Origin: Candidatus Babelota bacterium
GTDB lineage: Bacteria; Babelota; Babeliae; Babelales; UBA12411
Length of the DNA: 64,000 nt
Reading direction: 5' to 3'
NCBI GenBank assembly: GCA_003511165.1
Contig: DOJW01000004.1
Coordinates: 4,015 to 68,014 of the forward strand
In this document: positions 2,843-62,828 of the stretch, piece by piece
Numbering within the stretch: the first letter of the stretch is position 1
How the letters are laid out: every line of letters begins with the position of its first letter
Translations under genes and position numbers: made by a program
Notes under the pieces: generated by a model
Databases searched by the model: none
The model's input: only the letters and a program-made list of their open reading frames with translations
What the model was told of the DNA's origin: nothing

Positions 2843-2875
2843 AAAGGATTTTTATGAATTTTAAGAAATTTTTCA
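2843..2875 (+). repeat. 33-bp segment (RBS, ATG and first codons) identical to 4023-4055
   Basis: AAAGGATTTTTATGAATTTTAAGAAATTTTTCA is present at both paralog starts. Confidence 0.9.
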
Positions 2876-4023
2876 GTTTTTTGGTTTTAATATTTGTTTC
2901 TACAAATTTTATTTTACAATCTACTCCACAAACAGGACCTAAAAATAAAAAAGGGGGAACAACTCATCAATCCAGATCATTACTTAACGACGACTCAAAT
3001 AACACACTTTTCGAATTAGATTTGGACAAACAACAGAAGAAACCACATTTAACACTAATCGAAAGACTTAAAGACGAATTATTCAAATTTAAAAAAACAA
3101 ATTCGCCAAGAAGTAGAAGTCAAAGCCCTAACTATTTTGGAAATTCAAATAATAACACTAATGCTCAACCAGCAAACACTCATCCTTTCCTTGCCGGACT
3201 AGATTCAACAAACTCTAAACAAATCATTTTTATTATAAATTCTGCAAAATACGAGAAAGAAATTGTTGAAATTTTAAATGAAATGGCAGCTCTTTTTAAC
3301 TCCATAAAACAAAATGATGAAGAACTATGGTTTGTGATTGTTCAAGCAAATAAATTTCTTAGAGATATAATTTCCGCTTGCGTTGAATTAAATGAAGCAT
3401 TACCAAACGATTTAAGAGTTAATTTTCATAATTTAACTATCAATTGTGATCATATTTTTAGATTCGATACTAGACATCAAGCAGGTTTTCACTTTTTAGC
3501 AGATAAACAAGATTTAGTAGTCATGCAAGATACAATAGAAGAAGATACACAATCACATGTATTTTGTGCTCATCACCATGCAAACAAAGCATGTCCTCAT
3601 GGTAAATTTTCTACATTTTTCCCACAGCATATGACACACGCTGATGTTATCGAATCTGTAAGACAAAGTTTCTACCAACTCAAAATAGCATTCGGTGAAA
3701 GCAAGTATATTGCATTCAACTTAAAATATCAGATTTATTTAGAAGTATTTTTGAAAAATGAAAATGGAATAATAACTATCACATCTGCATTTCCCATTCT
3801 TTATTTTATAGAAAATGGAAGTAATTCTCCTAACCATCCATTCTCTAAAGGACAAATTTCAACAGCTATACGAGAAGCAAAAAATAATATTGATTTCTTT
3901 ACAAGATATAAAACAGATAGAGAAACAACTATTTTAGATCTAGCATCTATTCTAAAAAATAAAAATTTAACCAAAGCAGAATCTGGAATTTACGTCGAAG
4001 TATCAAATAATCTTCTTCAATAA
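2854..4023 (+). CDS. Secreted (Sec-leader) protein with C-terminal EndoU-like ribonuclease module, paralog 1
   Basis: 389 aa. Leader MNFKKFFSFLVLIFVSTNFIL. C-terminal motifs DHIF-x7-AGFHFL, AHHH, GKFSTFFP, ITSAFPILYF resemble the EndoU/XendoU H-H-K signature. AAGGA RBS lies 6 nt upstream of the ATG. Confidence 0.55.
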   Translation: MNFKKFFSFLVLIFVSTNFILQSTPQTGPKNKKGGTTHQSRSLLNDDSNNTLFELDLDKQQKKPHLTLIERLKDELFKFKKTNSPRSRSQSPNYFGNSNNNTNAQPANTHPFLAGLDSTNSKQIIFIINSAKYEKEIVEILNEMAALFNSIKQNDEELWFVIVQANKFLRDIISACVELNEALPNDLRVNFHNLTINCDHIFRFDTRHQAGFHFLADKQDLVVMQDTIEEDTQSHVFCAHHHANKACPHGKFSTFFPQHMTHADVIESVRQSFYQLKIAFGESKYIAFNLKYQIYLEVFLKNENGIITITSAFPILYFIENGSNSPNHPFSKGQISTAIREAKNNIDFFTRYKTDRETTILDLASILKNKNLTKAESGIYVEVSNNLLQ

Positions 4024-4055
4024 AAGGATTTTTATGAATTTTAAGAAATTTTTCA
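4023..4055 (+). repeat. 33-bp segment identical to 2843-2875
   Basis: Same RBS and start sequence as paralog 1. Confidence 0.9.
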
Positions 4056-5776
4056 AATTTATTACATTTTCAGTTTTAATTTTTATTTCTACAGATTTTT
4101 TGCTAAAAGCTACTCCGCCAGACACTCCACCAGACACTCCTGAATCTAAAAAAGATGAAACTCCAAAAAGTAGAAAAACACCAAGAAAAGGTCATATCGC
4201 ATTACCTATGGATAGCGATGAAAGCTCTTCAGAAAAAGATGATTCTGAACAATTTAGCGAAGATGGTGATCCCGCGGTAAAACTCACTTTTGGGGCTCCT
4301 GGAAATATTCCAAAAGCATCCTTTTTATTCCCTCCTAAAACTACAACTCATCATAAGCTCAAAAAGAAAAAAGAAGCCGAAGACGGCGATCAACTTTCAG
4401 ATGAAGATACTCCTACAGCAGGACCTATTGGTTTCACTACTGCAAAAAAATCTGATGTTGCAAAATTTTCGAAAGGCACATTTGCTTATCTCTCAAAAGA
4501 CTCACTAGATGAAGATGACGCTAAAAGCAAAACCTTACATAAAAAAAGAATAAGCAATAGCGTCGCAAGCAGTTCATCATCATCATCATCATTAGCAGCA
4601 GCTCCACCGGAATCACATGCAAAACGTACACGCATTAAAAAAAGTCTTACTACCGCTTCCCATTCAAGACAAAAATTTTTAGATCAACAAGCAGATCCTT
4701 TTGCTGAATTGGAAGATGAAGATGATACCGCTCCCTCTGAAAAACTAAAACAAATATTAGATGCTCTAAAAGAATTACCCCTAACTCCGGGATCAGGCTC
4801 TAGCTCTGTAGGTTTCAGCTTCATGCCCTTGCCCCCAGAACAGCAAATGAGACCGCCTTTTTCGCCAATGGAATCACCGATACTAAATCATCCTATTATA
4901 AAAAAAATAGATCGTCGCAAATCCCAAGAAATAACTCTTTTAATAAGGTCTACACAAGAAGAAAATGAAAAAATTGCAATTTTAAATTTAATGGCAGAAT
5001 TTTTAAGATTCATAAAAAACAACGATGAAATAACTTGGTTTGATATTGTTCAAAAAAACAGATTTCTTCAAAATATAATTTCCGCCTGTGTTGAATTAAA
5101 TCAAAGACTCCCCATAAATTTAAGAAAGAATCTAAATAATTTAATCATCGATTACCGCCATATTTTTGAAATGCAACATCAATCAGGGTTTCACTTTCTA
5201 GGGGATAAAGAAACACTTATTCTGCCAGAAACTAAAGAAGAAAATCCTATAACACAGGTATTTTGCGCGTATCACCATGTTAGCGGAGAGTGCCCCAATG
5301 GTAAATTTTCTACATTTTTTCCTCAACGCATGTCTAAAAGAGATGTAATAGAATCTGTAAGAAATAGCTTCAATCTACATAAAATAGCATCTAGTGAAAG
5401 TAAATATATTTCGTTCGATGCACAATATAATATTTATTTAGAAGTATTTTTGAAAAATGAAAATGGGATAATAACTATCACATCAGCATTTCCTATTCTT
5501 TATTTTATTCAATTAGATCGTGAACATAATATTGCTTTAAATAATTCACCTTACTCTCCTGAAGTAATTTTAAAATCTATAAGAGAGGCAACAAAAAAAG
5601 AAGATCTCGATATTTTAATTAAATACAAAACGGAAAGAAGAACAACTATTTTAGATATAGCTCCTATTCTAAAATTAAAAAATGCAACTAAAGCAGAATC
5701 TGGAATTTACGTCGAAGTATCAAATGAATTTATTGAAGGGATAGAACAATCAGCCAGCGCGTCGTCTTCAAGCTAA
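4034..5776 (+). CDS. Secreted protein with long acidic/Ser/Pro-rich disordered region and C-terminal EndoU-like module, paralog 2
   Basis: 580 aa. Same leader and same C-terminal motifs as paralog 1 (RHIF-x6-SGFHFL, YHH, GKFSTFFP, ITSAFPILYF). About 280 aa of low-complexity sequence lie between the leader and the module. A 35-bp identical run links 5432-5466 and 3733-3767. Confidence 0.55.
   Translation: MNFKKFFKFITFSVLIFISTDFLLKATPPDTPPDTPESKKDETPKSRKTPRKGHIALPMDSDESSSEKDDSEQFSEDGDPAVKLTFGAPGNIPKASFLFPPKTTTHHKLKKKKEAEDGDQLSDEDTPTAGPIGFTTAKKSDVAKFSKGTFAYLSKDSLDEDDAKSKTLHKKRISNSVASSSSSSSSLAAAPPESHAKRTRIKKSLTTASHSRQKFLDQQADPFAELEDEDDTAPSEKLKQILDALKELPLTPGSGSSSVGFSFMPLPPEQQMRPPFSPMESPILNHPIIKKIDRRKSQEITLLIRSTQEENEKIAILNLMAEFLRFIKNNDEITWFDIVQKNRFLQNIISACVELNQRLPINLRKNLNNLIIDYRHIFEMQHQSGFHFLGDKETLILPETKEENPITQVFCAYHHVSGECPNGKFSTFFPQRMSKRDVIESVRNSFNLHKIASSESKYISFDAQYNIYLEVFLKNENGIITITSAFPILYFIQLDREHNIALNNSPYSPEVILKSIREATKKEDLDILIKYKTERRTTILDIAPILKLKNATKAESGIYVEVSNEFIEGIEQSASASSSS
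4574..4591 (+). repeat. (TCA)6 trinucleotide microsatellite inside a poly-Ser tract
   Basis: Read directly. Part of an SSSSSSSS run in the 580-aa protein. Confidence 0.9.
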
Positions 5777-10114: not shown

Positions 10115-10597
10115 TTAATAATATCCGTCAAGTTCGCCAGCTTGATGCAATTGATATTTAACGTTGCTTGATAATCTTTGCCATGAAATTAATTTCTGTC
10201 TTAATTCTGTCATCTTTATATCGCATGCAATCCTTGCATCTGGAGATTCCGGATCTAATACTCCAGGGCTTTTCTCATAATAACCGATTGTTTCATTTAA
10301 TTCTCGAATTGGTTTATTACAAGCAAACAATACTGAGCTAGTAATTATAGAACCTTTTTCTAAAAGAAATTCTGCTATTGTAAACAAATCAACTCTTTCA
10401 CAAGCTCTTTGCAACGGTAAAAAAAATTTTTCATCTTTTTCATCTATACAACTTGGATTTAAACTAACCAAAAATCTAACAAATTCAAGATTGCCTGCTT
10501 TGATAGCATCAAAAATCGCATGATGCACACCCAATAAATTAGATTCCCCTAATATTGAAAAAAACAAAAATGTTAATAATTTAAAATACTTTTTCAT
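10115..10597 (-). CDS. Short ankyrin-like secreted protein, paralog of 11304..11984
   Basis: 160 aa. The leader MKKYFKLLTFLFFSILG is encoded by 50 bp identical to the 11304 paralog. One ANK-like unit (IFDAIKAGNLEFVRFLV...LPLQRACE). Confidence 0.6.
   Translation of the reverse strand: MKKYFKLLTFLFFSILGESNLLGVHHAIFDAIKAGNLEFVRFLVSLNPSCIDEKDEKFFLPLQRACERVDLFTIAEFLLEKGSIITSSVLFACNKPIRELNETIGYYEKSPGVLDPESPDARIACDIKMTELRQKLISWQRLSSNVKYQLHQAGELDGYY
10548..10597 (-). repeat. 50-bp perfect repeat of 11935-11984 covering the leader-coding 5' end
   Basis: CCTAATATTGAAAAAAACAAAAATGTTAATAATTTAAAATACTTTTTCAT on the plus strand at both loci. Confidence 0.9.
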
Positions 10598-10644
10598 GGT
10601 ATTCCCCCAACTTATTTTTAATTTAATTGAATTCTAACTTCATA

Positions 10645-11292
10645 TTATTGAATAAGTTCCATAGAAGTAGCCCCCCTACTTTTTAGAAACGTTATTGTAT
10701 TCTTTAAATTTTCTATAACTTCAGATTGCAAATCTATTTTTTCTTGAAATTCATCTAAAAATTTTTCTGTAAATTTAGCATCCACCTTCATTAAATAGTT
10801 ATATGTTTTTCCCAACTCTTTAAAATAAGGCATTTCAATGGCGTTATATTTAATAATTGCAGTATCTAAAATCGAATCCCCAAAGGAGTTAACATAAGAA
10901 ACATCCGCTCCATTATTAACTAATAACTTAACCAAATGATGTGGAATATTTTTATATACTGCTACCTGCAAAACAGAAAAACCAGGTAATCTTGTTTCAA
11001 CTACGTTTACATCTACCACAACATACAAGATTAAAAATTTAAAAATTTTTTCTAAAATTTCACGCTTATCTAAATCTTCTTCGTCGCCTAATCTCTCACA
11101 TAATTTAAATAAAGGATTTACACCTCTTTCATCGACAAAATTTACAGATTCAGGATCTTCTTCAACCAAAAGTTTAATTCGCTCATAATCTGCATTTTCT
11201 ACCACATCAAAGATTTCATGATGTTCTGCAAATATGCTAAAAGCACTCCCAAGTATTGATAAAAATATTAATAGTTTTAAACTTTTTTTCAT
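10645..11292 (-). CDS. Ankyrin-repeat protein with Sec-type leader
   Basis: 215 aa. Leader MKKSLKLLIFLSILGSAFSIFA. ANK unit GFSVLQVAVYKNIPHHLVKLLVNNGADVSYVNSFGDSILDTAI. Confidence 0.7.
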   Translation of the reverse strand: MKKSLKLLIFLSILGSAFSIFAEHHEIFDVVENADYERIKLLVEEDPESVNFVDERGVNPLFKLCERLGDEEDLDKREILEKIFKFLILYVVVDVNVVETRLPGFSVLQVAVYKNIPHHLVKLLVNNGADVSYVNSFGDSILDTAIIKYNAIEMPYFKELGKTYNYLMKVDAKFTEKFLDEFQEKIDLQSEVIENLKNTITFLKSRGATSMELIQ

Positions 11293-11303
11293 AAATAATT
11301 TTA

Positions 11304-11984
11304 TTAAGCTTCTGATCTAAGACTCTTCTGAATCAAAGAAATTAGGGTTTCAAATTTATTTAACACTACACTTTGGGTTGCAAATTCAGATTGAAGATCT
11401 ATTAAACATTTTTCGTTATATTCAAGCACTCTCAAAAAGCTAGGAAGATAACTTGATGGTGTTAATTTTAAAATATTTTCTTGATGATATTTTATTGATA
11501 ACTTCAACGGCCGATAAATGATTAAAACAGCACATAGCTTATTCTCAGCAACATTTAAAACTGAATCTCCAAAAGAATTTATATAAGAAACCCTTGCCCC
11601 TTTTTCAATTAATGATGCAATGGAATCATATGAAAGATCATTTTGCACTGCACATTGTAAAACTGAAAAATTGGGAATATTCGGTTCAATAAAATTTACA
11701 TCTGCATCCGTACTCTGTAAAAAATATAAAAATATTTTTTCTAAATTTTTACGTCTATTAAAATCCTCTTCCGAACCATATATATCACACAATTTAAACA
11801 AAGGAGTAACACCTTTTTCATCAATACAATTTACACATGTACAATCTTGCCTTATCAATGTTTTAATTCCTTCAAAATCCGCCAAAACTAAAGTATCAAA
11901 AATTACATGATGCACTCCAAATAAATTCGACGCGCCTAATATTGAAAAAAACAAAAATGTTAATAATTTAAAATACTTTTTCAT
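11304..11984 (-). CDS. Ankyrin-repeat protein with Sec-type leader
   Basis: 226 aa. ANK unit FSVLQCAVQNDLSYDSIASLIEKGARVSYINSFGDSVLNVAE. Confidence 0.7.
   Translation of the reverse strand: MKKYFKLLTFLFFSILGASNLFGVHHVIFDTLVLADFEGIKTLIRQDCTCVNCIDEKGVTPLFKLCDIYGSEEDFNRRKNLEKIFLYFLQSTDADVNFIEPNIPNFSVLQCAVQNDLSYDSIASLIEKGARVSYINSFGDSVLNVAENKLCAVLIIYRPLKLSIKYHQENILKLTPSSYLPSFLRVLEYNEKCLIDLQSEFATQSVVLNKFETLISLIQKSLRSEA
11935..11984 (-). repeat. 50-bp perfect repeat of 10548-10597
   Basis: See 10548-10597. Confidence 0.9.
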
Positions 11985-12703
11985 AAATAACCTTCCATTT
12001 TTATGAATTTAGGATTTAGGTAGTGAAATAAATTCATCATTTTTAATAAATCGTGGACAATTTTACGCTGACAATCAAAAGGGAAACTTAGATGCTCTTC
12101 TAAATGAAATTGATGTTTTTCTCGTTGTTGTATTAAATCTTCTAATGAATATCCACAATATTTAGAACATTCCATATCCCTAATTTTTTTTATTTTATTT
12201 TTATGAGAATTAATTTCTTTCCGAAGCGCATCTAAAACTACTTTTTCCTTTAAATAATTTTTTTCTGCTATATCCAATACAGAATTTCCAGATAAATTTA
12301 CATAAGAAATATCTGCGCCCTTTTTTACCAATAATTCAATTAAAGAATATGAAATATCTTTATCAATAGCATATTGTAAAATTGAAAATTTTGGCGCTGT
12401 TTCTAAAACTGAATTTACATTCACATCTGTATATTTAACTATATATCTAAAAATATTTTTTAATTTTTTACGTCTATCAAAATCCTCTTCCGAACCATAT
12501 AAATCACATAATTTAAATAAAGGCGAAACTCCATTTTCATCAACAAAATTTACAGATTCAGGCTCTCTTTCCAATACCAAAAGAACTTTGCTATAACTAG
12601 CTTTTTCTATCGCATCAAAAATTGCATGATGCTCACAAAACAAATTGGAAACGGAAATTAATGCAAGAAATGCAAAAGTTAATAATTTAAAACCTTTTTT
12701 CAT
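11981..12703 (-). CDS. Ankyrin-repeat protein with Sec-type leader
   Basis: 240 aa. ANK unit FSILQYAIDKDISYSLIELLVKKGADISYVNLSGNSVLDIAE. Overlaps the next paralog by 4 bp. Confidence 0.7.
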   Translation of the reverse strand: MKKGFKLLTFAFLALISVSNLFCEHHAIFDAIEKASYSKVLLVLEREPESVNFVDENGVSPLFKLCDLYGSEEDFDRRKKLKNIFRYIVKYTDVNVNSVLETAPKFSILQYAIDKDISYSLIELLVKKGADISYVNLSGNSVLDIAEKNYLKEKVVLDALRKEINSHKNKIKKIRDMECSKYCGYSLEDLIQQREKHQFHLEEHLSFPFDCQRKIVHDLLKMMNLFHYLNPKFIKMEGYL

Positions 12704-12907: not shown

Positions 12908-13420
12908 TTATCTTCTAATAGCTTCTAAAATTCGTAATTGATTAGAAATAGCATGACGTAAAACTTTACAAAGTAGATAATCTAAATATGAAACTTCATT
13001 TGCGGCAAGAGAAATCAAACTCTCATCTATATCGCTTATTAATGATGTAATATCTTTTTTTGCTTTATCTAAATCATTTACCAACAATCTCGCCACAAAA
13101 TTAAATCGCACAATAAAATGTGCTGAGCTTCCAAAAATATACCCCGCATAACCACAGCCTCTTTGAGGGAGCCTTACATTTTTGTACTCATACATCACTG
13201 AGCCTAAAAAAGAATTCGCATCTACAAAAAAACCATTTTCTACATCATACGCTTCAAAAATAAAGGCCGGATTTTCTGAAATCCACTTATCCAAATATTT
13301 TGAATCTTTATTTTGCACAGAAGCATCAAATGCAGTCATCAACACTGGTGGATAAGCTTCAATTTTTGATATAAATGATAAGCTCAACAACGCACAACAA
13401 ACAGTTAATATTTTTTTCAT
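12908..13420 (-). CDS. Hypothetical secreted protein
   Basis: 170 aa. Leader MKKILTVCCALLSLSFISKIEA. No recognisable domain. Confidence 0.6.
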   Translation of the reverse strand: MKKILTVCCALLSLSFISKIEAYPPVLMTAFDASVQNKDSKYLDKWISENPAFIFEAYDVENGFFVDANSFLGSVMYEYKNVRLPQRGCGYAGYIFGSSAHFIVRFNFVARLLVNDLDKAKKDITSLISDIDESLISLAANEVSYLDYLLCKVLRHAISNQLRILEAIRR

Positions 13421-15389: not shown

Positions 15390-16616
15390 TTATTTTGCTG
15401 TTGCCATAACGACTGGCTCTAACATCTTTGCTGGCTCTGATTTTAAATTCTTTAAAATTCTGTTCCATCGAATAAATTTTGTCCACAAATCAATTGGATG
15501 TTTTATAAAATCAAAAAACCAAAAAGATTCTAAACTATCAATCGAATATACCACAAAGCTTGCTCTGCCATAAATTCGATCTGCATCCAAAAATCCCCAA
15601 AATCGGCTGTCATAACTATTTTTTCTATTATCACCCATCATCCAATATTTACCTTGAGGAACAACCATTGGACCAAAAATATCAACGTTTTTACCATTAC
15701 GTTCAATTGTAGGAGTAAATGGCATAAGAACCCAAGCAGATGTAGAGCCAGGCTTCAAAACAACTTCTTCAGAATGCATACGATAAAAAGGTTGCTCTAA
15801 CAGATCTTTTGAAGGGTCAAACGAATAACCTATTGGATCTGATCTATAACGTAAAAATGCAGGAACTGGTAATAATCCAATTCTATCAAAATCAAAAAAT
15901 CCAGACGCTTTTTCAAGCACAATTAGCGGATATTTATTAACATAAGGCTCATCAAGTTTTTTACCATTTACATAAACAACTGTTTTACCATTTTCAATCT
16001 TTCCTTCGATAGTATCCCCTGGCAATCCGACAACTCTTTTTACAATATTATCAGGTCCAGCTTCTAAACCAACAATTGGAATAGGTAACCCAACATATTT
16101 TTGCCACCAATATTTCAATTTATTACTTTGATCAAATTTGAAAGTTTGGGATGAAAACATAACAAGATCACCACGCTGAGGTTTCCTTCCAAAGCTATAA
16201 GCCATATTATTTCCCCAAACACGATCACCTACTAAAAGATTAACTTCTGCTGATCCGGAAGGAACTTGATAAAGACCAAAAACAAAATTTCTTAATATAA
16301 AAATAACCACCAAAGCAGTAGCCAAAGCTTCTAACCACTGTCTCCACTCCGGTTTTGTTATTTCATTTAATTCTTTATAAACTTTTCTAAATCTTTTTAC
16401 TTTCTTTTTAAGTTCAGGAGTTATTTTGCTCAAACTTTCGAAATCTTTTTTCAACGAAACTGATAGCAAATCTAACTCTTCAATCATCTTTGAAGATTTA
16501 GAAATTAAATCTTCTTTTTTATGTTTTTTCCAATAATCTATTCGCGAAGTAAACCGAGATTTATTAGAAAAATATTTTTCATTCCACTTTTCAAAAATCT
16601 TTTTAAATTTATTCAT
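15390..16616 (-). CDS. lepB: Signal peptidase I with extended N-terminal cytoplasmic region
   Basis: PSGSAEVNL (catalytic Ser box), KRVVGLPGD (Lys box), GDNRKNSYDSRFWG. ATG at 16616 has an AAGGA RBS 7 nt upstream. The track start at 16637 is GTG. Confidence 0.85.
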   Translation of the reverse strand: MNKFKKIFEKWNEKYFSNKSRFTSRIDYWKKHKKEDLISKSSKMIEELDLLSVSLKKDFESLSKITPELKKKVKRFRKVYKELNEITKPEWRQWLEALATALVVIFILRNFVFGLYQVPSGSAEVNLLVGDRVWGNNMAYSFGRKPQRGDLVMFSSQTFKFDQSNKLKYWWQKYVGLPIPIVGLEAGPDNIVKRVVGLPGDTIEGKIENGKTVVYVNGKKLDEPYVNKYPLIVLEKASGFFDFDRIGLLPVPAFLRYRSDPIGYSFDPSKDLLEQPFYRMHSEEVVLKPGSTSAWVLMPFTPTIERNGKNVDIFGPMVVPQGKYWMMGDNRKNSYDSRFWGFLDADRIYGRASFVVYSIDSLESFWFFDFIKHPIDLWTKFIRWNRILKNLKSEPAKMLEPVVMATAK

Positions 16617-16666
16617 ACAAAATTCCTTATGCTCCACTCTTTATCTTTTATATCTTTTTTAAAATT

Positions 16667-50790: not shown

Positions 50791-52365
50791 TTAACTTGCT
50801 CTAAAATACATTTTTCTTAAGTAAGTTTCACCGACTCCAAGAATATTCTTTGTAAGCCAATATAAAACTAATCCGGCTGCAAAATTTGCAAAAAGAACTG
50901 TTACAAATATTGACATAAACCACATCATAATCTTTTGTTTGTCATCAGAGACTGGAGTCATCTTTTGTTGCCAAATCATAGAAATTCCCATCAAAATTGG
51001 CAAAACATAATAAGGATCTTTTGAAGACAAATCCACGATCCATCCAAAGAATGGCGCTTGGTATAAATCCATATAGTTCGCAAGTACTTTATATAAAGCC
51101 ATCATAATAGGTAAATCGAGAAGTAATGGTAAACATCCTGCAAGTTGTCCTGTTGGTGAGAGATTATTTTCTTTATGAAATCTCATAATCTCTTCTTGTT
51201 GACGCTTCATATCGCCTTTAAATTTTTCTCTGATTCTTGATATTTGTGGCTGAAATCTTTGATATTTTTCCATAACATTCGCACTTTTCATCGTAAGAGG
51301 CAAAAGAGGAATTTTTATCAAAATAGCAAGGAGAATAATTGCAAGACCATAGTTATGAACAAGTCCATAAATCCAAGAAAGTAATTTTAAAATAAATTTG
51401 CAAAGCCATGAGAACCAACCAAAATCAAGTAAACTTTCTAATCGACTATCAACAGCTGCTAAATCTTCAATATCTTTAGGCCCAAAATAAAAGGAAAGAT
51501 TCCAAGTTGTTTTTTCTTTAACTTGTGCACCTTCTAAAATTGAAAATAAATTGTTATTCAAATTTTTATAATAAGCTCTTTGAGTAAAATGCTCTGTGTC
51601 CCCTACAAGCGCATGAGCAAAGTATCTATCTTCAGAGCCAAATATTTCAGGCATAATCCATGCACTGTCGGCTTCACTTTCCTTTGTGGATGTAAATTTC
51701 TTAAGAGATTTTTTAACAGAATCTAAATAAAAACCATTATTTGAATCATTTGATAATTCATTTAAAAATGGAGCTGGAAAAAAAAGTCTTGGTTTGATTG
51801 GGTTTATATTTGTACTTTTTGGGGTGAATTCCAAATTCAAATCGATTTGATAAACCTTTTTAGAAACAGAGTAAATTTTCTTAATGATCCAATTTTCAGA
51901 TTCTGCAACATACGAAACATTTATTTTATCTTGTAAATCCTGTTTATTTTCAAGCTTGTAGAAATATGGAGTCTTTTCGTCCAAAGCTAAAAGCAAGCAA
52001 CTTTCTTCTCTTTGAAAAAAATCTTTAGGGTAAACAGATTTTAAAGCCTTATTTTCTTTGCCCGGTCTTTTATTGTACTCGACCGAAGAGATCACGCCGC
52101 CAAAGCTTGAAAATGCAATTTTATAAAGCTCTGTCTCAACAGGAGTCACAATTTCTTGAACCGTAATTTTTTTATCTATAAAATCTATTTCTTTATTCAG
52201 CGGCTTTAGCTGCTCTTCTTTTGAAGGAATTCTAACACCTTGTCCCGGCTGAACATTTTCTACCACTGCCGTATCTTTTGAGTCGTTCCTATGTAAAAAA
52301 TATTGCAAAAATATAACCGTCATCGAAGATAACACTAACGTCAAAAATAATTTTTTATCCATCAA
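50791..52365 (-). CDS. yidC: Membrane protein insertase YidC
   Basis: 524 aa. N-terminal TM plus periplasmic domain. C-terminal Oxa1 core (P.Q....KYK.D..K...E.M.L.K....NP..GCLP.L.Q.PI). Confidence 0.9.
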   Translation of the reverse strand: MMDKKLFLTLVLSSMTVIFLQYFLHRNDSKDTAVVENVQPGQGVRIPSKEEQLKPLNKEIDFIDKKITVQEIVTPVETELYKIAFSSFGGVISSVEYNKRPGKENKALKSVYPKDFFQREESCLLLALDEKTPYFYKLENKQDLQDKINVSYVAESENWIIKKIYSVSKKVYQIDLNLEFTPKSTNINPIKPRLFFPAPFLNELSNDSNNGFYLDSVKKSLKKFTSTKESEADSAWIMPEIFGSEDRYFAHALVGDTEHFTQRAYYKNLNNNLFSILEGAQVKEKTTWNLSFYFGPKDIEDLAAVDSRLESLLDFGWFSWLCKFILKLLSWIYGLVHNYGLAIILLAILIKIPLLPLTMKSANVMEKYQRFQPQISRIREKFKGDMKRQQEEIMRFHKENNLSPTGQLAGCLPLLLDLPIMMALYKVLANYMDLYQAPFFGWIVDLSSKDPYYVLPILMGISMIWQQKMTPVSDDKQKIMMWFMSIFVTVLFANFAAGLVLYWLTKNILGVGETYLRKMYFRAS

Positions 52366-52570: not shown

Positions 52571-53251
52571 ATGAAAAAAAGCCTAATTTTAATCTTAGTT
52601 TGCTCACTTATGGTTTCAAACTCTGTAATTTGCAAAACAAAACAACAAACAATAAATCCAATAAAACAAAAAATTGAAAAACTATATTTAAATAAAAATG
52701 GATTTAACATTAGCCCAAAAGAATATGAAAAAATTACAAATCAAGGCGGAGCTCCAACTTATGGCGAAATCACATATGAATCTCTAGAAACAATCATAAA
52801 AGATTTGAAAATGACAAAAAAAGATATTTTTTGTGATCTGGGATGCGGAATAGGAAAAGTATGCGTGCAAGTACGGCTTACAACTCCTGTAAAAAAAAGT
52901 ATCGGAATAGAATTATCTGAAAGCAGAGTCAAACAAGCTCAAGAAATAAAGACACTTCTTGAAAGAAAACAATTAATATCAAACAAAGGTGGTAAAATAT
53001 TAAAATTTTATAAACAAAATATTCTTGAAGCAGACCTAAAAGATGTTACTGTAGTCTTTATGTGTTCAACATGCTTCTCAGAAGATTTGATGAAAAAAAT
53101 CACAAAAAAACTTTCCTCATGTAAAAAAGGACTAAAAGTTGTTACATTAAAACAACTTCCTGCAAATAAACAATTTGTTTTACAACAGGAAAAAAATCTT
53201 GCGATGAGTTGGTCTTCTGCTTCCCCTGTTTATTTTTATAAATTAAATTAA
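52571..53251 (+). CDS. DOT1-like SAM-dependent methyltransferase with Sec-type leader
   Basis: 226 aa. Leader MKKSLILILVCSLMVSNSVICK. YGEITYESLETIIKDLKMTKKDIFCDLGCGIGKVCVQV...GIE aligns by eye to the human DOT1L core as I recall it ([38 protein letters not shown]...GVE). Confidence 0.65.
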   Translation: MKKSLILILVCSLMVSNSVICKTKQQTINPIKQKIEKLYLNKNGFNISPKEYEKITNQGGAPTYGEITYESLETIIKDLKMTKKDIFCDLGCGIGKVCVQVRLTTPVKKSIGIELSESRVKQAQEIKTLLERKQLISNKGGKILKFYKQNILEADLKDVTVVFMCSTCFSEDLMKKITKKLSSCKKGLKVVTLKQLPANKQFVLQQEKNLAMSWSSASPVYFYKLN

Positions 53252-55926: not shown

Positions 55927-57996
55927 ATGAAAAAGCAGATTTTACTTTTAATATTTTTAGCAAACATTTTCACCCCTTTATTTTCAGAAGATGAAATTCC
56001 AACCCTCGCTCAAAAAATTTGTGACATCAACATGAAATCTTTTCCAAGAGAAGACAGTTCCTGGGAAACTCATACCATGCTTGAATATGTAAATCATTTA
56101 AAAGAACATATTTCACATCCATCTTCTAGTGTTAAACGCAATATGGGTTTTGAGTTTTTCAACAAATATGAAAAAACTAATTCTTTAAAAGTCGACCATG
56201 ATAACTCAACGCTTTGGGAAGACTTAGACTTATTTCGTGGCAAAAAAGATTTAAGCAAATATACAGCAAACTCACTTAGTCGAGAAGAAACTGAAATTGG
56301 TAAAATCAGTTTTTATGAAATGTTGTCTAATCCAACAGCCGATACAAAATTATTAAAAAAGCGACAAGAACTAATAAAATTTTTCATTGCTAATCCGCAA
56401 GTTGCAAAAGATTGTAAAAATGCACTTGCTCAAATCGCCTCTTCCGAAAACTTCTTACTCGCATTTTTGGGTCACGATGAGTTAGAACACAACGCGAATG
56501 ATGCATTCTTCAATAATGTTTTAACTAAAAAATTAAATGATTCACAAGTAGCTCTTTTGATCAAAAATAGTTTGGCTAATGCCAATCGCTTACGGTATTT
56601 CGCTCTAGATGTTTTTTTAATAACAGTATTTATTTCTTATGGAACATTAAACCTCACAGGAGTCATTGATAGTCCAGCATGGCTGCGCAAAATTACTTAT
56701 GATTACAAAAACTTCGACAGAGGAATTCTTATAGAATGTCTTAAATTTGTACAAACAAAAATTCCACAGTCAGCCATACTTTTACAGCTGTTACAAAATA
56801 AATATGTTCAATCGTCATTAATATTAGGTGCAGGGGTATGGAGCGCTACTGAACTCACAAATCATTTTGACTGGGTTTATGGGAAAATAAAATTTGAACA
56901 ACTACTTCAAGAATATATGTATCATTTAGCAAAAGTCACAGACGGTATCAAAAAGCTACAAGAATGCTGCAATAAAAATCCAATTTTAGCAGAGTTCGAA
57001 GAGTTTAAACCGCTTCTAAAATTTTTTGATAACAATGAAAAACATGCATCAACACTTCAAGATACGCTCAGTTTGTTTCAACAATCTACTTTCAATAAAC
57101 CTGGCTCAATATTCTGTAACCATGGGGCAGTATTCAAAGCCTATGGTTTAATGAAAAATTTAAAAGATGAGTATAAAAAAGCAATCGTAGCAACAGCAAG
57201 AATTGATGTTTACGTTTCTCTTGCAACACTTGTAAAAGAATTTGAAGATAAACCTGTTTCTTTTACATTTCCACAATATGTAGAAAATTCAACAACTCCT
57301 TTTATCGAACTTAATGATTTTTGGCATCCAATTTTAGATCCAAAGAAAGCTGTACCAAATTCGATAGAACTTGGAATTAACAACCAAAGATCAAATGTCA
57401 TTCTCACCGGTCCAAATGAAGGTGGAAAATCAACTGTATTAAAATCTTTAACTTTATCAATTTGGCTTGCACAAACCTGCGGAATTGCTCCTGCAAAAAA
57501 TATGTGCTTCACTCCTTTTGTAAATATCTCAACATACTTAAACATCACAGATGACATCGGAGCCGGAAATTCATTATTCAAAGCAGAAGTTTTGCGTGCA
57601 CAAAAATTGATAGATTCAATCAAAAGCTCTAAACCCAAAGAATTTAGCTTTTCAGTGTTCGACGAAGTATTCAACGGCACGTCGCCAATCGAAGGATCGG
57701 CTGCCGCACACAGCGTCGCAAAGCATTTAGGAAGTTTTTCACAAAGCATCTGCCTGATCGCTACACATTTTGATTTATTAACAATGCTCGAAGATGAAAC
57801 TACTAATTTCCAAAACTACAAAGTTTCTGTTATCAAAGATATAGATGAAAAAATAATTTCTTATCCGTATAAATTAGAATTTGGTAAATCAGAGCAACAC
57901 ATCGCTTTAGATGTTTTAAAAAATCAGGGATTTGATTCATCAATTATTAAAGATGCGCAAGAAAAGGTTAAATCTATTTCATTTTCTTTTATGTAA
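55927..57996 (+). CDS. MutS-family ATPase (domains III and V only) with N-terminal leader and internal TM hairpin
   Basis: 689 aa. GPNEGGKST (Walker A), DDIGAGNSLFKAEV, FDEVFNGTS (Walker B), ATHF. No mismatch-binding domain I and no Smr or endonuclease domain. Hydrophobic segments at residues 1-20, about 225-245 and about 295-315. Confidence 0.7.
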   Translation: MKKQILLLIFLANIFTPLFSEDEIPTLAQKICDINMKSFPREDSSWETHTMLEYVNHLKEHISHPSSSVKRNMGFEFFNKYEKTNSLKVDHDNSTLWEDLDLFRGKKDLSKYTANSLSREETEIGKISFYEMLSNPTADTKLLKKRQELIKFFIANPQVAKDCKNALAQIASSENFLLAFLGHDELEHNANDAFFNNVLTKKLNDSQVALLIKNSLANANRLRYFALDVFLITVFISYGTLNLTGVIDSPAWLRKITYDYKNFDRGILIECLKFVQTKIPQSAILLQLLQNKYVQSSLILGAGVWSATELTNHFDWVYGKIKFEQLLQEYMYHLAKVTDGIKKLQECCNKNPILAEFEEFKPLLKFFDNNEKHASTLQDTLSLFQQSTFNKPGSIFCNHGAVFKAYGLMKNLKDEYKKAIVATARIDVYVSLATLVKEFEDKPVSFTFPQYVENSTTPFIELNDFWHPILDPKKAVPNSIELGINNQRSNVILTGPNEGGKSTVLKSLTLSIWLAQTCGIAPAKNMCFTPFVNISTYLNITDDIGAGNSLFKAEVLRAQKLIDSIKSSKPKEFSFSVFDEVFNGTSPIEGSAAAHSVAKHLGSFSQSICLIATHFDLLTMLEDETTNFQNYKVSVIKDIDEKIISYPYKLEFGKSEQHIALDVLKNQGFDSSIIKDAQEKVKSISFSFM

Positions 57997-58092
57997 AAAA
58001 TTATCAACCAAACTTTTTTAATTTGAGTTTTTAAAACTCATGCAGTAACATGTTTTTGTTTGTTATTTTTCATTAAACATAAAGGAGTAAAA

Positions 58093-59307
58093 ATGAAAAT
58101 AAAAATCCAATCTTTAATAATTTCACTTGCCTTAATTGCACCTCAGATTTACAGCCAAGACACATGTGAAAAAGAATGTTGCACAACTCAAGAACAGTCT
58201 AAAACAAATATAACCCCGGCAACATCGAGTCAACTGGACCAAATAAAACAATTAATAGAACAGCTACGAGAAGAACTTGCAACCGTGTTCAAAAATTTAA
58301 ATGCAAATAAAGAAAGCTGTGAAGAAATAAATAAATTTTTCAAATCTGCGGAAAATGATTTAAATCCTCAAACAGTAGATAGAGTCTTAGAAAATCTAAA
58401 AGCTTTAACCCATTATGTTTATGATCAAATTTTTTGGATACTTGGAATGCGCGAAAGAGGAGTTACATACAAAACCGCAAAAGAAGATTTTGCCTCTTTA
58501 TATAAACTTTATAGCGAAAAGTTTTTAACACTTCCTGTCATGAAAAATGTCGGATTAAAAATCGACGAACTAGCAAAACGAGAAGATAAAACTATCGATA
58601 TAAACATTGAATCTCTAAAACTTAGCATCGAGCTTTTCAAAAATATGAAAACAATTTATGCAACAGTAAGAGAAATGAATCATGATTTGGAAGATCAAGA
58701 TCGAATATCTGATTTAGAAAAAGATATAAACGAATTAGAAACATATCTAAAAGATTACGATCAATCAAAGTATGCTATCGCAAACGAAAAACAATTTGAA
58801 ACAATAAAAAAATATATTCAAACACTAAAACAAGCGGTAGAAAAATTCAAAAAATTCTTATCTACTGAAAGAATAGAAAAACTACAAAGTTATCTATCTT
58901 GGATAGAAGAACATATAACTACAAAAAACTGCGGTATTATTTGTAATGATTTAATCGACCAGTTAAAAGAAGAATTATGCGATTATTACAATCACATATT
59001 ACCTGTATATCCAGAAATTTCAGATAACAAATATGATCTAATTACTGAAATGGTAAAAAATAATCCTGAACTTATCAAAATCCAACAAAATATATTTGAT
59101 CATTTTGGAACCATATTAATTGATGATCTAGAAGACTCAAAAGAAATTAATTTCCAAGCAATTTTAGGTGAAGCTGATGTCTTCAACAAAAATATGAATA
59201 AAAAACTTATCATTGTAGAAGCGATGGTAAAAGAAATAGAAAATCTTGATACATTTGCAAAAACATTTAACGAAGTCTTTGAGAAAATTAAAAACGAAAA
59301 CAAATAA
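58093..59307 (+). CDS. Secreted coiled-coil-rich hypothetical protein
   Basis: The start is moved to the ATG with an AAGGAG RBS 5 nt upstream; the track start at 58060 is TTG. Leader MKIKIQSLIISLALIAPQIYSQ, CEKECC motif, then long heptad-like E/K/L-rich sequence. Confidence 0.6.
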   Translation: MKIKIQSLIISLALIAPQIYSQDTCEKECCTTQEQSKTNITPATSSQLDQIKQLIEQLREELATVFKNLNANKESCEEINKFFKSAENDLNPQTVDRVLENLKALTHYVYDQIFWILGMRERGVTYKTAKEDFASLYKLYSEKFLTLPVMKNVGLKIDELAKREDKTIDINIESLKLSIELFKNMKTIYATVREMNHDLEDQDRISDLEKDINELETYLKDYDQSKYAIANEKQFETIKKYIQTLKQAVEKFKKFLSTERIEKLQSYLSWIEEHITTKNCGIICNDLIDQLKEELCDYYNHILPVYPEISDNKYDLITEMVKNNPELIKIQQNIFDHFGTILIDDLEDSKEINFQAILGEADVFNKNMNKKLIIVEAMVKEIENLDTFAKTFNEVFEKIKNENK

Positions 59308-59325
59308 CAAAATTTTATAAACAAT

Positions 59326-59359
59326 AAAAAGAGGCTCGGAAATTTTCGAGCCTCTTTTT
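59326..59359. terminator. Bidirectional terminator between convergent genes
   Basis: GAGGCTCG...CGAGCCTC hairpin with a flanking A-run and T-run. Confidence 0.85.
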
Positions 59360-59381
59360 ATTCGATATTCAGATTTAGCAA

Positions 59382-59648
59382 TTACCTATTACGTAACTCT
59401 CTTTCTAATTCGGCCAATTGAAGTCTTGCCAAACATCCTAAATAATCAGACAGCGGATCTGCCTCCAATTCGCCAATCAGCTCCATCAATTTTGTATAAT
59501 CTCCGTATTCCATGTACTTTCTTTCTCTAACAGTTGCAATTGTTTCCCTAAACTCTTTAAGCACCTCTGCATCTGGTCTACCTACTACAAAACATGGTGT
59601 TGCAATCGCGGCCGCAAAAGCAAATATAATTAAACGTTTGTTTTTCAT
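59382..59648 (-). CDS. Small secreted helical hypothetical protein
   Basis: 88 aa from ATG 59648. Leader MKNKRLIIFAFAAAIATPCFVVG. Lies between the mnmG stop and the terminator. Confidence 0.5.
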   Translation of the reverse strand: MKNKRLIIFAFAAAIATPCFVVGRPDAEVLKEFRETIATVRERKYMEYGDYTKLMELIGELEADPLSDYLGCLARLQLAELERELRNR

Positions 59649-59674: not shown

Positions 59675-61546
59675 TTAATAAAATAAATTTGTTTTAATTT
59701 TTTCGCAAATGCGAATTTGAAATATGAGAAGTGATATTGCAGCTGGAGTCATACCAGGAATGAGCTGTGCTTGAGCAATATTTGCAGGTTTAAATTTTGT
59801 TAATTTTTGTTGTAGCTCGACACATAATCCAGGTAAATCTTTGTAATCAAAATTTTGTGGAATGTGTAAACTTTGATATCGAGAAGCTTTTTCAACTTCA
59901 CGAACTTCGCGTTGCAAATAACCTTCGTATTTTATCTCTGCATGGATATTGAGCAAAACTCTGCTATTTAATAAATATTGATACTCCAAATTATTTTGTA
60001 ATAATTTTTCTGCAAGCAGTTCTTTTGCCCGCTGTTTTATCTCATCTGTAAACTCTATAACAAAAAATGATTTATACAGTTCATCATTTCGATTTACTGA
60101 TTTTATAAGTTCAACAGATTTTTGAATGATATTTTTTTCTCTCAAAAATTGTTCATACATTTCATCACTAATTAATCCCAAATCTCTTGCATGAGGCATT
60201 AGTCGCAAAAATGTATTATCTTGTCGCAAAAGAAGTCTACGTTCAGCGCGCGATGTAAACATTCGATAAGGCTCATCAATACCGATAGTCACAAGATCAT
60301 CAATCATAACGCCAATATAACTTTCATTACGATTTAAAATAAAAGGGTCTTTATTATTAACTTTTAAATGCGCATTTATCGCAGCGACCAATCCTTGGCC
60401 AGCTGCTTCTTCGTATCCGGTTGTTCCATTTATTTGTCCTGCAAAAAATAAATTTTCTACATTTTTTGCTTCAAGCGAATGTTTTAAATTTGTTGGCGGC
60501 AAAAAATCATATTCGATTGCGTATCCGGCGCGCGCAATTTCTGCATTTTCAAAACCTTTGATACTACGAATATAATCAATTTGAACATCAAGCGGCAAAG
60601 ATGTTGAAAGACCAGCTGGATAAACTTCATCACTTTCTAAACCTTCAGGCTCAACAAAAACATGATGTGTTTTGCGATCTGGAAATCTTGCAACTTTGTC
60701 TTCGATCGAAGGACAATATCTTGGTCCAATTCCTGTGATAGCACCACCAAATCTAGCTGATCGTGCGAAATTGCTTCGAATAATTTCGTGAGTACTTTCA
60801 TTTGTGGCAGTTACAAAACATGAAACTTTTTCTTCGCTTTGCACACCATCAAATTCATAAAGAAAGTCTAGTTGATGAGATTCGTGCTGATCAAATTTTG
60901 AGTAATCAAGTGATGATTTCAAAAGCCTTGGAGGTGTTCCTGTTTTTAATCTTCCAAGTTTTATGCCCAAAATTTCTTGCAACGAACCTGTCAAAAATGT
61001 TGCAGCCGGTTCACCCTCTCTCCCAGAACTGTGATTTTTTAAACCGATATGAACAGTTCCATTCAAAAATGTACCAACAGTGACAACGACAGATTTTGCA
61101 AAAAATTCTTCGCCAGATGCTACTTTAATACCGATCACTTTATTTTTATTTTCTAGTTTTTCAAATAAAAGCGAAGCAACTTCTCCTTGAAATATTTCTA
61201 AATTTTTAGTTTGAGATAAAATTTCTTGCGCCAATTTTGAATATTTAAATTTATCAACTTGAACTCGTAGTCCTTGTACAGCTGGACCCTTGCTAGTATT
61301 TAACATTCGTGCTTGCAAATGTGATTTACTACAAAGTTTTGGCATCAAACCATTAAAAGCTGCGATTTCATAAACAATGTGACCTTTACCCAGTCCACCT
61401 ATCGATGGATTGCATGGACACCAGGCTATTCGATCTTTTTTTATTGTTACAAGTAATGTTTTTGATCCCAAATTAGCAGCAACGTATGCTGCTTCACAAC
61501 CGGCATGTCCACCACCAACAATAATCACATCATATTTTTCAAGCAT
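59675..61546 (-). CDS. mnmG: tRNA uridine-5-carboxymethylaminomethyl modification enzyme MnmG (GidA)
   Basis: YDVIIVGGGHAGCEAA, GPRYCPSIEDK, FFAGQINGTTGYEEAA. ATG at 61546 has an AGGTGG RBS. Confidence 0.95.
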   Translation of the reverse strand: MLEKYDVIIVGGGHAGCEAAYVAANLGSKTLLVTIKKDRIAWCPCNPSIGGLGKGHIVYEIAAFNGLMPKLCSKSHLQARMLNTSKGPAVQGLRVQVDKFKYSKLAQEILSQTKNLEIFQGEVASLLFEKLENKNKVIGIKVASGEEFFAKSVVVTVGTFLNGTVHIGLKNHSSGREGEPAATFLTGSLQEILGIKLGRLKTGTPPRLLKSSLDYSKFDQHESHQLDFLYEFDGVQSEEKVSCFVTATNESTHEIIRSNFARSARFGGAITGIGPRYCPSIEDKVARFPDRKTHHVFVEPEGLESDEVYPAGLSTSLPLDVQIDYIRSIKGFENAEIARAGYAIEYDFLPPTNLKHSLEAKNVENLFFAGQINGTTGYEEAAGQGLVAAINAHLKVNNKDPFILNRNESYIGVMIDDLVTIGIDEPYRMFTSRAERRLLLRQDNTFLRLMPHARDLGLISDEMYEQFLREKNIIQKSVELIKSVNRNDELYKSFFVIEFTDEIKQRAKELLAEKLLQNNLEYQYLLNSRVLLNIHAEIKYEGYLQREVREVEKASRYQSLHIPQNFDYKDLPGLCVELQQKLTKFKPANIAQAQLIPGMTPAAISLLIFQIRICEKIKTNLFY

Positions 61547-62744
61547 AAATCCCACCTACGGATGCCCAAACAGTACCTTCAAAAGGATATCTCCTAACAG
61601 TTCTTCGCAGCGGAGATTGCCATGCAATAAAAATATGTTCCAATTGTTCTCTAAGCATGCCCACTTGTTCACGAGTGACATTACAACCATCTATTTTGAT
61701 AGCTCTCAGATTTTTTGCCATTCGAATAAATTCAGCAATAAATTCTGATGATAAATTTGGATTCTGGGATATATCCAAAGCCTGAATTAATGGACAAATC
61801 GTTAATAATGTTAATAATGCAGAACCCGAAATATTTGAACCTGGAATAGATAAAGTTTTGAGATTTGGACAACTTTGTAAAAAATTAATTAAAAAATCTT
61901 CTGGATATTCAGATGTATTACTCAATTCTAATCGCCCCAATCTTTTACATAATTCTTTGTTTTTTGAAAATTCTTGCAAAATTTTTGGAATAGTAAATCT
62001 AAAACCTAAAGATTTCAAATTTGGCAGAGAATTAACAAAAGTAGCTACATCCTCCAAGGCCAAATTCGTTCTACCACAAAAATCAAACTCCTCAATATTT
62101 TGGTTCCCAACCAAAGGCTGAAGCTGTTCTTTTGTTATTTCAAGACCCAAACTTAATACCAAGTTTTCAGATTTATAAATTTCACTCGCAAGGAATACGG
62201 GAACTATGGCTTTTGATAAACCTCCGATTGTAAGATTTAAAGAATAACTTAAAATATCCTTATTTCTTTTTAAATTAATTTTCAAACCTTTTAATATAGC
62301 TTCCCAACGATCGCCTTTACTCAAAGAACAATTTAATTCAACATTTCTCCATATAGGCCTATCAGTAAAAAAACGTTCAAGATTTTGTGGAGAAAACATC
62401 ATAAAATAATTTAGACTTATACTCTCTAAATATGGGAATCTTATTTCTAATGCATTTAATTTTTCATCATCCCAAGGTCGAACTTTACAAACCTGTCCAC
62501 CCGGTAATAAATCTACTCCCGGAATTACAAACATTTGAGAATGTTGAGTTAAATTATAATCCCATCGCCTACAAACTCTTCTTAATTCATAAGCCCTAGG
62601 CACATCTTTATCAATAGTTTCACTTAAAACCGAAGCCAAAAGCTCATCTGGCAAATCACCTAAACCTGCCTCTATTTTTGATAACGGTAAAAACCCAAAA
62701 AACAGTAAAATTATTAAAAAAGTGTTAGTTTTCTTTAAAATCAT
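61539..62744 (-). CDS. F-box / cysteine-containing LRR (FBXL-like) protein with N-terminal hydrophobic leader
   Basis: 401 aa. F-box LPDELLASVLSETIDKDVPRAYELRRVCRRWDYNL. C-terminal CC-type LRRs (SCPNLKTLSIPGSNISGSALLTLLTICPLIQALDISQNPNLS). The stop overlaps the mnmG start by 8 bp. Confidence 0.7.
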   Translation of the reverse strand: MILKKTNTFLIILLFFGFLPLSKIEAGLGDLPDELLASVLSETIDKDVPRAYELRRVCRRWDYNLTQHSQMFVIPGVDLLPGGQVCKVRPWDDEKLNALEIRFPYLESISLNYFMMFSPQNLERFFTDRPIWRNVELNCSLSKGDRWEAILKGLKINLKRNKDILSYSLNLTIGGLSKAIVPVFLASEIYKSENLVLSLGLEITKEQLQPLVGNQNIEEFDFCGRTNLALEDVATFVNSLPNLKSLGFRFTIPKILQEFSKNKELCKRLGRLELSNTSEYPEDFLINFLQSCPNLKTLSIPGSNISGSALLTLLTICPLIQALDISQNPNLSSEFIAEFIRMAKNLRAIKIDGCNVTREQVGMLREQLEHIFIAWQSPLRRTVRRYPFEGTVWASVGGIYA

Positions 62745-62828
62745 AAAAAAGCCCTTATTTAAGAATAAAAAATATTCCTAATTATAAAGGCTTTTTAGAC
62801 TTTTAAAAGTGGTAAAAATTAAGATAAA

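Follow-up and report, generated by a model that had tools for sequence, protein, structure and literature searches.

The stretch of DNA analysed here (referred to as the window) is 64 kb of contig DOJW01000004.1. On its minus strand an open reading frame (ORF) at 61539–62744 specifies a Sec-type leader, an F-box and about ten leucine-rich repeats (LRRs) of 25–26 residues, and ends within the start of mnmG. A sequence-only reading of the window had drawn attention to this ORF as an F-box/LRR gene with a leader that overlaps mnmG, and as an observation this is confirmed. Its interpretation survives in part: the architecture and the 8-nt overlap stand, whereas the leader and the overlap, both of which it had called unusual, are ordinary in their context.

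We take the ORF to be real, its length being far beyond chance in DNA of 32% GC by our own estimate, which uses how densely stop codons occur in AT-rich sequence; the residues that had been quoted from it are present (MILKKTNTFLIILLFFGFLPLSKIEA, then GLGDLPDELLASVLS...LRRVCRRWDYNL). Since its GC content (0.318) and its GC at third codon positions (GC3, 0.199) match those of its neighbours (GC3 0.18–0.25), the gene is not a recent import. Its product is 100% identical to [quoted passage not shown] from a metagenome-assembled genome (MAG), and the adjoining MnmG is likewise 100% identical to a Candidatus Dependentiae MAG record. These matches place the protein in a bacterium that lives inside eukaryotic cells: the source is, on sequence identity, an uncultured member of the Dependentiae (TM6), a phylum known only as intracellular parasites of protists (PMC4776705, PMC6561590). 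The independent Logan assemblies which carry the F-box gene contain the same DNA with zero differences, and dN/dS is therefore not estimable. Among 1.8 billion cluster representatives no orthologue was found, the only match below 1e-30 being the protein itself, and neither the window nor related loci contain a paralogue.

The F-box and the leucine-rich repeats

Residues ~27–70 of the protein (GLGDLPDELLASVLSETIDKDVPRAYELRRVCRRWDYNL) hold every signature position of an F-box, namely LPxELL, the hydrophobic heptad and VCRRW; set against the consensus LPxE[IL]L ... [VI]C[KR]xW they read L31-P32-D-E-L-L ... V57-C-R-R-W61. In an hhalign comparison with eight Pfam-verified F-box segments, residues 26–118 aligned with a probability of 95% (E 4e-8). 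The isolated segment aligns with the Skp2 F-box through LPDELL...VC+RW, and in the AlphaFold (AF2) model the part N-terminal to the LRRs forms a three-helix module (mature residues 7–20, 22–28 and 33–42).

In the solenoid that follows, the modelled beta-strands are spaced by 25–26 residues in eight repeats, and two longer repeats at ~130–192 are modelled poorly. Cysteines occupy the CC-type positions of about six of the ten repeats (C265, C291 and C316; ELNC, FDFC and IDGC). The closest sequences in the PDB by phmmer are FBXL17 (3e-6), FBXL2 (4e-6), COI1 (1e-3) and SKP2 (8e-3), the last aligning over residues 30–309. An exhaustive phmmer search gave 803 matches with E ≤ 1e-3, each of them through the LRRs; of the 150 best, about 20 possess an N-terminal F-box, and those checked against Pfam are bona fide F-box + LRR_6 proteins. 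The roughly 20 include Nematostella FBXL7, a Babeliales "F-box-like domain-containing protein" and Chlamydiota proteins, and Chlamydiota proteins are among the better LRR matches (one at 1e-18). The sole NCBIfam match, to the LRRs of XopAC, was at chance level and was set aside.

Single-sequence AlphaFold (pLDDT 46.5) was unusable outside residues 250–350 and was replaced by a model based on a 15-sequence alignment (pLDDT 68, pTM 0.62), in which three N-terminal helices precede a regular beta/alpha solenoid. When this was compared with the PDB by Foldseek, each of the 19 best matches was an F-box/LRR protein whose structure had been determined with SKP1/ASK1 (E 1e-9 to 3e-6), these being FBXL17, FBXL2, SKP2, MAX2/D3, TIR1 and COI1. 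By sequence comparison and by modelled fold, then, the nearest relatives are FBXL proteins, and the proposal of an F-box followed by repeats of the Skp2/FBXL type is backed by profile, sequence and fold evidence. An F-box joined to FBXL-type LRRs is, we believe, very probably the correct architecture.

Several results pull the other way. Both Pfam F-box models match residues 29–62 beneath their gathering scores (PF12937, F-box-like, 20.2 bits, E 5e-4, against 24.3; PF00646, F-box, 12.5 bits, E 0.15, against 20.5), the F-box-protein LRR model PF24758 reaches 20.5 bits against 27, and Pfam LRR_6/AMN1, which the sequence-only reading had proposed as a check, gave no match at E ≤ 1. With the F-box segment alone as query, the top match among PDB sequences is the Skp2 F-box at a non-significant E of 0.66. 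Foldseek TM-scores are about 0.48 with a large root-mean-square deviation, the F-box is modelled with medium confidence (pLDDT 59–75), and because the alignment behind the model was built from F-box/LRR proteins the fold result is not fully independent. The absence of orthologues, in turn, means that conservation of the F-box is not assessable. A gathering score is a curated cut-off and not a biological property, and an E of 5e-4 is still significant for a search with one protein. What had been described as a textbook F-box is therefore one in its quoted residues and consensus positions and falls short in its Pfam scores; the suggested Pfam check yielded sub-threshold matches to the F-box models and none to LRR_6.

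The protein might alternatively be an exported LRR protein that acts outside the SCF (Skp1-Cul1-Rbx1) pathway, in binding or adhesion at the surface, in the periplasm or after secretion, with an F-box-like stretch that is a degenerate remnant unable to bind Skp1. Many bacterial LRR proteins are indeed surface, periplasmic or secreted binding or adhesion proteins, and such a role would agree with the sub-threshold F-box matches, the non-significant PDB search with the isolated segment, the classical export leader and the want of orthologues showing selection on the F-box. We nevertheless consider it unlikely. The repeats are of the 25–26-residue intracellular FBXL type, whereas bacterial surface LRR proteins typically have shorter LRR classes; the F-box signature is complete, the hhalign result is strong at 95%, and the full-length fold matches are to F-box/LRR-SKP1 complexes.

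An orphan without paralogue or orthologue, in which the repeats at ~130–192 and the C-terminal 33 residues are poorly modelled, could also be the decaying or functionless remains of a gene acquired long ago from a eukaryote, kept open only because the ribosome-binding site and start of mnmG lie in its 3' end. This strikes us as very improbable. The constraint imposed by mnmG covers the last ~20 nt only and cannot hold 1.2 kb open in stop-rich DNA of 32% GC; codon-position GC resembles that of the neighbours; and the leader, the F-box motif and all ten repeats are intact.

In its layout the protein resembles the eukaryotic FBXL proteins (SKP2, FBXL2, FBXL17, and TIR1, COI1 and MAX2 of plants), in which an N-terminal F-box directly precedes a curved solenoid of ~26-residue, cysteine-containing LRRs; SKP2 is also of similar size, with about ten repeats. 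Unlike these, it shows only 13–17% identity to them over the fold alignments, bears a Sec-type leader, has several degenerate repeats with no match to LRR_6, and lies in a bacterial operon, its codon composition being bacterial too. From the same phylum comes the Babeliales protein MCF7799526.1, with two F-box matches, LRR_6 and an N-terminus which is also hydrophobic. The two are not orthologous, the 26% similarity being confined to the LRRs and the F-box motif; the protein described here is a singleton in its lineage.

The leader and a possible route into the host

The leader comprises an n-region (MILKK), an h-region (TNTFLIILLFFGFLPL) and a c-region (SKIEA) followed by G27, with Ile at −3 and Ala at −1. 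By inspection this is the layout of a Sec substrate of signal peptidase I: a positive n-region, a hydrophobic h-region and I/A at −3/−1. The call was made by inspection together with a simple hydropathy script, which gave the 16-residue h-region a maximal 12-residue Kyte-Doolittle value of 2.87, and cleavage is predicted after SKIEA. Having no cysteine, the leader is not a lipoprotein signal, and because the next in-frame Met falls past the F-box it is integral to the protein. The N-terminal hydrophobic leader that had been reported is thus there, and n-h-c organised, though hardly a peculiarity. Signal peptides are the published norm for eukaryote-like candidates in Dependentiae, and similar leaders are borne by the DOT1, ankyrin-like and EndoU proteins of the window.

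Genomes across TM6 have been reported to carry ankyrin, WD40, LRR and F-box domains (PMC4776705). That of Babela massiliensis encodes a RING protein, an F-box protein and deubiquitinases that are secreted, with signal peptides on 79 of its 126 ankyrin proteins and type II secretion as the sole system detected (PMC4378268). In Chromulinavorax signal peptides occur on 44% of coding sequences and 78% of ankyrin proteins, and vesicle budding was seen during infection (PMC6561590). The combination of a Sec leader with eukaryote-like effector domains is therefore already a published expectation in Dependentiae, of which the present F-box/LRR protein is a new, orphan example.

The leader might also remain uncleaved as a membrane anchor, tethering the protein in the bacterial inner membrane or, once it has been released, inserting it into a host or vacuolar membrane, so that the F-box and LRRs are exposed at the membrane surface and do not act as a soluble factor. 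The h-region, at 16 residues and a hydropathy of 2.87, is at the upper end for cleaved signal peptides. It is, however, followed by a good −3/−1 site (I-E-A); the SKIEA c-region recurs in another leader of the window, which also encodes signal peptidase I; and an F-box facing the periplasm from the inner membrane would have no partner. We rate an anchor as quite unlikely.

We would suggest, with moderate confidence, that the product is an F-box/LRR protein by which an intracellular Dependentiae parasite mimics its host. Its leader would direct it to the Sec pathway, signal peptidase I cutting after ...SKIEA to leave G27 as the mature N-terminus. As published Dependentiae biology would suggest, type II secretion or outer-membrane vesicles could then carry the mature protein out of the cell, to arrive in the host cytoplasm. 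There, on the pattern of its family, the three-helix F-box, lying four residues from the new N-terminus, would dock on host Skp1, and the solenoid of about ten repeats would bring some host protein to the SCF ligase for ubiquitination. The fuller proposition, that of an SCF hijacker delivered by Sec with type II secretion or vesicles from a bacterium that lacks type III and type IV machinery, is one that we hold only tentatively and with more doubt than belief. Such a route is not known to have been demonstrated for F-box effectors. Less favourable to these proposals are the lack of any secretion system within the window, the vacuolar membrane, if there is one, which a type-II-secreted protein would still face, and a sigma-70 promoter scan, in which 25 sites were found as against 20.9 ± 4.3 in shuffles and none stood above chance.

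If delivered to the host, the protein would take a route different from that of the characterised F-box effectors. AnkB, LegU1 and LicA of Legionella, VirF of Agrobacterium and GALA of Ralstonia resemble ours in the proposed mechanism, in which a bacterial F-box binds host Skp1 and redirects SCF ubiquitination. Type IV or type III systems deliver these effectors, which are without cleavable signal peptides, whereas the Dependentiae protein has a Sec-like N-terminus. The substrate domains differ as well, being ankyrin repeats in AnkB and 24-residue GALA-type LRRs in Ralstonia.

The paper on Neochlamydia NEX1a (Domman et al. 2014, PMC4209131) cites AnkB among the F-box proteins of Legionella. 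NEX1a is alike in being a bacterial F-box protein with C-terminal LRRs, from an obligate intracellular associate of protists, for which SCF hijacking has been proposed; it differs in belonging to a family of 138 members whose tested representatives have a type III secretion signal (PMC4209131), as opposed to a single-copy gene with a Sec leader from a phylum in which type II secretion alone has been detected, in Babela. The ubiquitin-system proteins of other Dependentiae (the F-box protein of Babela massiliensis, and TM6SC1) share with ours the phylum, eukaryote-like domains behind signal peptides and a proposed type II exit (PMC4378268, PMC4776705, PMC6561590).

The gene adds a clean, single-copy, FBXL-like case to the ubiquitin-system mimics of a phylum with almost no experimental work, and with 375 mature residues, an unambiguous leader and a compact F-box it makes a convenient test case. 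It bears on a question in the literature, that of how proteins with ordinary signal peptides act in the host cytoplasm when type II secretion alone is available. Were the proposal correct, cleavage at G27 would put the F-box almost at the mature N-terminus, substrates of the general secretory pathway could act on cytosolic ubiquitin ligases of the host, and the many eukaryote-like proteins that Dependentiae equip with signal peptides would prove to be genuine effectors in the cytosol.

The mnmG junction

The features of the locus, with two further genes relevant to the export model, are collected in Table 1. As the sequence-only reading had it, the stop codon of the F-box gene (TGA, 61541–61539) overlaps the mnmG start codon (ATG, 61546–61544), and the AGGTGG of mnmG lies within the F-box ORF, whose final codons, in the tail, carry both this Shine-Dalgarno (SD)-like sequence and the start codon. 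The identity of mnmG is beyond doubt from its TIGR00136 score, and its start is backed by 25 orthologues that begin M-x(2-4)-[FY]DVIVVG.

Table 1. Coordinates of the F-box/LRR gene, its parts and associated features in the window
Feature	Position	Strand	Description or basis
F-box/LRR protein gene	61539..62744	-	401 aa; coordinates include the stop codon
Sec-type signal-peptide-like leader	62667..62744	-	residues 1-26; sequence, hydropathy
F-box	62535..62666	-	residues ~27-70 (LPDELLASVLS...LRRVCRRWDYNL); Pfam, hhalign, three modelled helices
LRR solenoid	61641..62438	-	residues ~103-368, ~10 repeats; model strand spacing, FBXL matches, PF24758
C-terminal tail	61542..61640	-	residues 369-401 (33 residues), modelled disordered, pLDDT <50; model and sequence
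8-nt overlap ATGCTTGA	61539..61546	-	mnmG start / F-box gene stop; sequence
SD-like AGGTGG for mnmG	61552..61557	-	in F-box ORF, 5 nt before ATG; sequence
mnmG (tRNA U34 cmnm5 modification enzyme)	59675..61546	-	623 aa; TIGR00136 763 bits, PF01134 506 bits
Small ORF with signal-like leader	59382..59648	-	88 aa; 26 nt past mnmG
Terminator-like hairpin (13+9 bp) + U6	62746..62796	-	ends directly before F-box gene ATG; folding
Intrinsic-terminator-like hairpin GAGGCUCG...CGAGCCUC	59325..59360	-	flanked by A-run/U-run; between small ORF and convergent gene
Signal peptidase I	15390..16637	-	relevant to export model
YidC	50791..52365	-	relevant to export model

The F-box gene overlaps mnmG by 8 nt, a gap of 26 nt separates mnmG from the 88-aa ORF, and all three share a strand. 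The small ORF, which had been put forward as a secreted protein at the end of the operon, exists and has a signal-like leader, its secretion being a prediction; profile searches gave it no family. Each end of the group is marked by a hairpin with a U-tract. The downstream one (dG −20.9 kcal/mol, z −5.43) and the upstream one (dG −21.1 kcal/mol, z −4.46) were each equalled by 0 of 200 shuffles. Neither was picked up by a terminator scan, probably because the stems extend into the A/U runs, and both were found by folding instead; Rfam has no match near the locus. A three-gene unit bracketed by these two structures is plausible, and the overlap, the position of the mnmG SD and the bracketing hairpins together make it likely, as far as sequence can tell, that mnmG is transcriptionally and translationally coupled to the F-box gene.

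The F-box gene may head the unit, as the sequence-only reading had supposed, although an amine-oxidase-like gene lies 84 nt upstream of it on the same strand. The upstream hairpin begins 33 nt past the stop of that gene and looks like its terminator. A TATAAT (62786–62781) is in its 5' arm and the SD-like AAGGG of the F-box gene in its 3' arm. The TATAAT has no convincing −35, and within the F-box ORF the sigma-70 scan gave no promoter-like site above chance. With a hairpin at the F-box ATG, either read-through or a promoter within the hairpin itself would have to drive expression, a further option for mnmG being an internal promoter that escaped detection. The hairpin is AU-rich and sequesters AAGGG, and could serve as a terminator that overlaps a promoter or, alternatively, in translational control.

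That stop and start overlap is not in itself unusual, as overlaps of 1 to ~26 nt, on the listed ORF starts, occur in at least ten same-strand gene pairs of the window. Synteny was derived from MnmG homologues and their contigs; a MnmG pattern scan of genome contigs had retrieved only an unrelated Caldimicrobium locus, the single-protein pattern being too strict. The comparison of mnmG synteny that had been recommended does not extend the arrangement to relatives. In four Dependentiae whose MnmG is 62–68% identical, mnmG follows a divergently transcribed glycosyltransferase-4/MraY-like gene and has no F-box gene near it, and the F-box–mnmG junction is accordingly lineage-specific. Recent horizontal transfer was rejected as its cause, GC and GC3 being like those of the neighbours and no match exceeding 37% identity. 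The junction is most simply seen as a side effect of the compaction and rearrangement of the genome and not as a functional link between the two genes. Its significance is thus limited: it shows effector genes wedged into the housekeeping units of a compacted genome, in which mnmG has perhaps given up the independent place behind a divergent gene that it holds in the four relatives.

Other genes of the window and of related contigs

A second eukaryote-type effector candidate, possibly directed at chromatin, is specified at 52571–53251 (+), where a signal-like leader (MKKSLILILVCSLMVSNSVICK) precedes the DOT1 histone-methyltransferase domain [PF08123, 91 bits, E 8e-26] of a 226-aa protein. Four tandem paralogous genes at 10115–12703 (−) encode proteins of 160–240 aa, each with an MKK.FKLL.F leader, and three of the four have weak ankyrin matches [PF12796, 21–27 bits], all under the cut-off. 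Beside them a 170-aa ORF (12908–13420, −) has a leader that ends in SKIEA, as does that of the F-box protein. Two adjoining leader-bearing proteins (2854–4023 and 4034–5776, +) both start MNFKKFF and possess bacterial EndoU domains (PF14436); the EndoU endonucleases encoded by Chromulinavorax were described as cytoplasmic (PMC6561590).

The 689-aa product of 55927–57996 (+) starts with a signal-like N-terminus (MKKQILLLIFLANIFTPLFS) and matches MutS domain V (106 bits) and, weakly, domain III; it is odd for a MutS-family ATPase to carry an export-type leader. The gene at 58060–59307 (+), which converges on the terminator-like hairpin shared with the mnmG unit, encodes a leader-bearing protein of 415 aa (404 aa as called in L001) that showed only weak, scattered, sub-threshold Pfam matches and no convincing family. 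A NurA-domain nuclease is encoded at 895–2040 (−).

On related contigs, a RING-finger protein (zf-C3HC4/zf-rbx1) is located two genes from mnmG (L004, 2407–3366, −) and an ankyrin protein three genes from it (L007, 235–1668, +). Ubiquitin-system and repeat proteins are thus scattered among housekeeping genes in Dependentiae relatives too.

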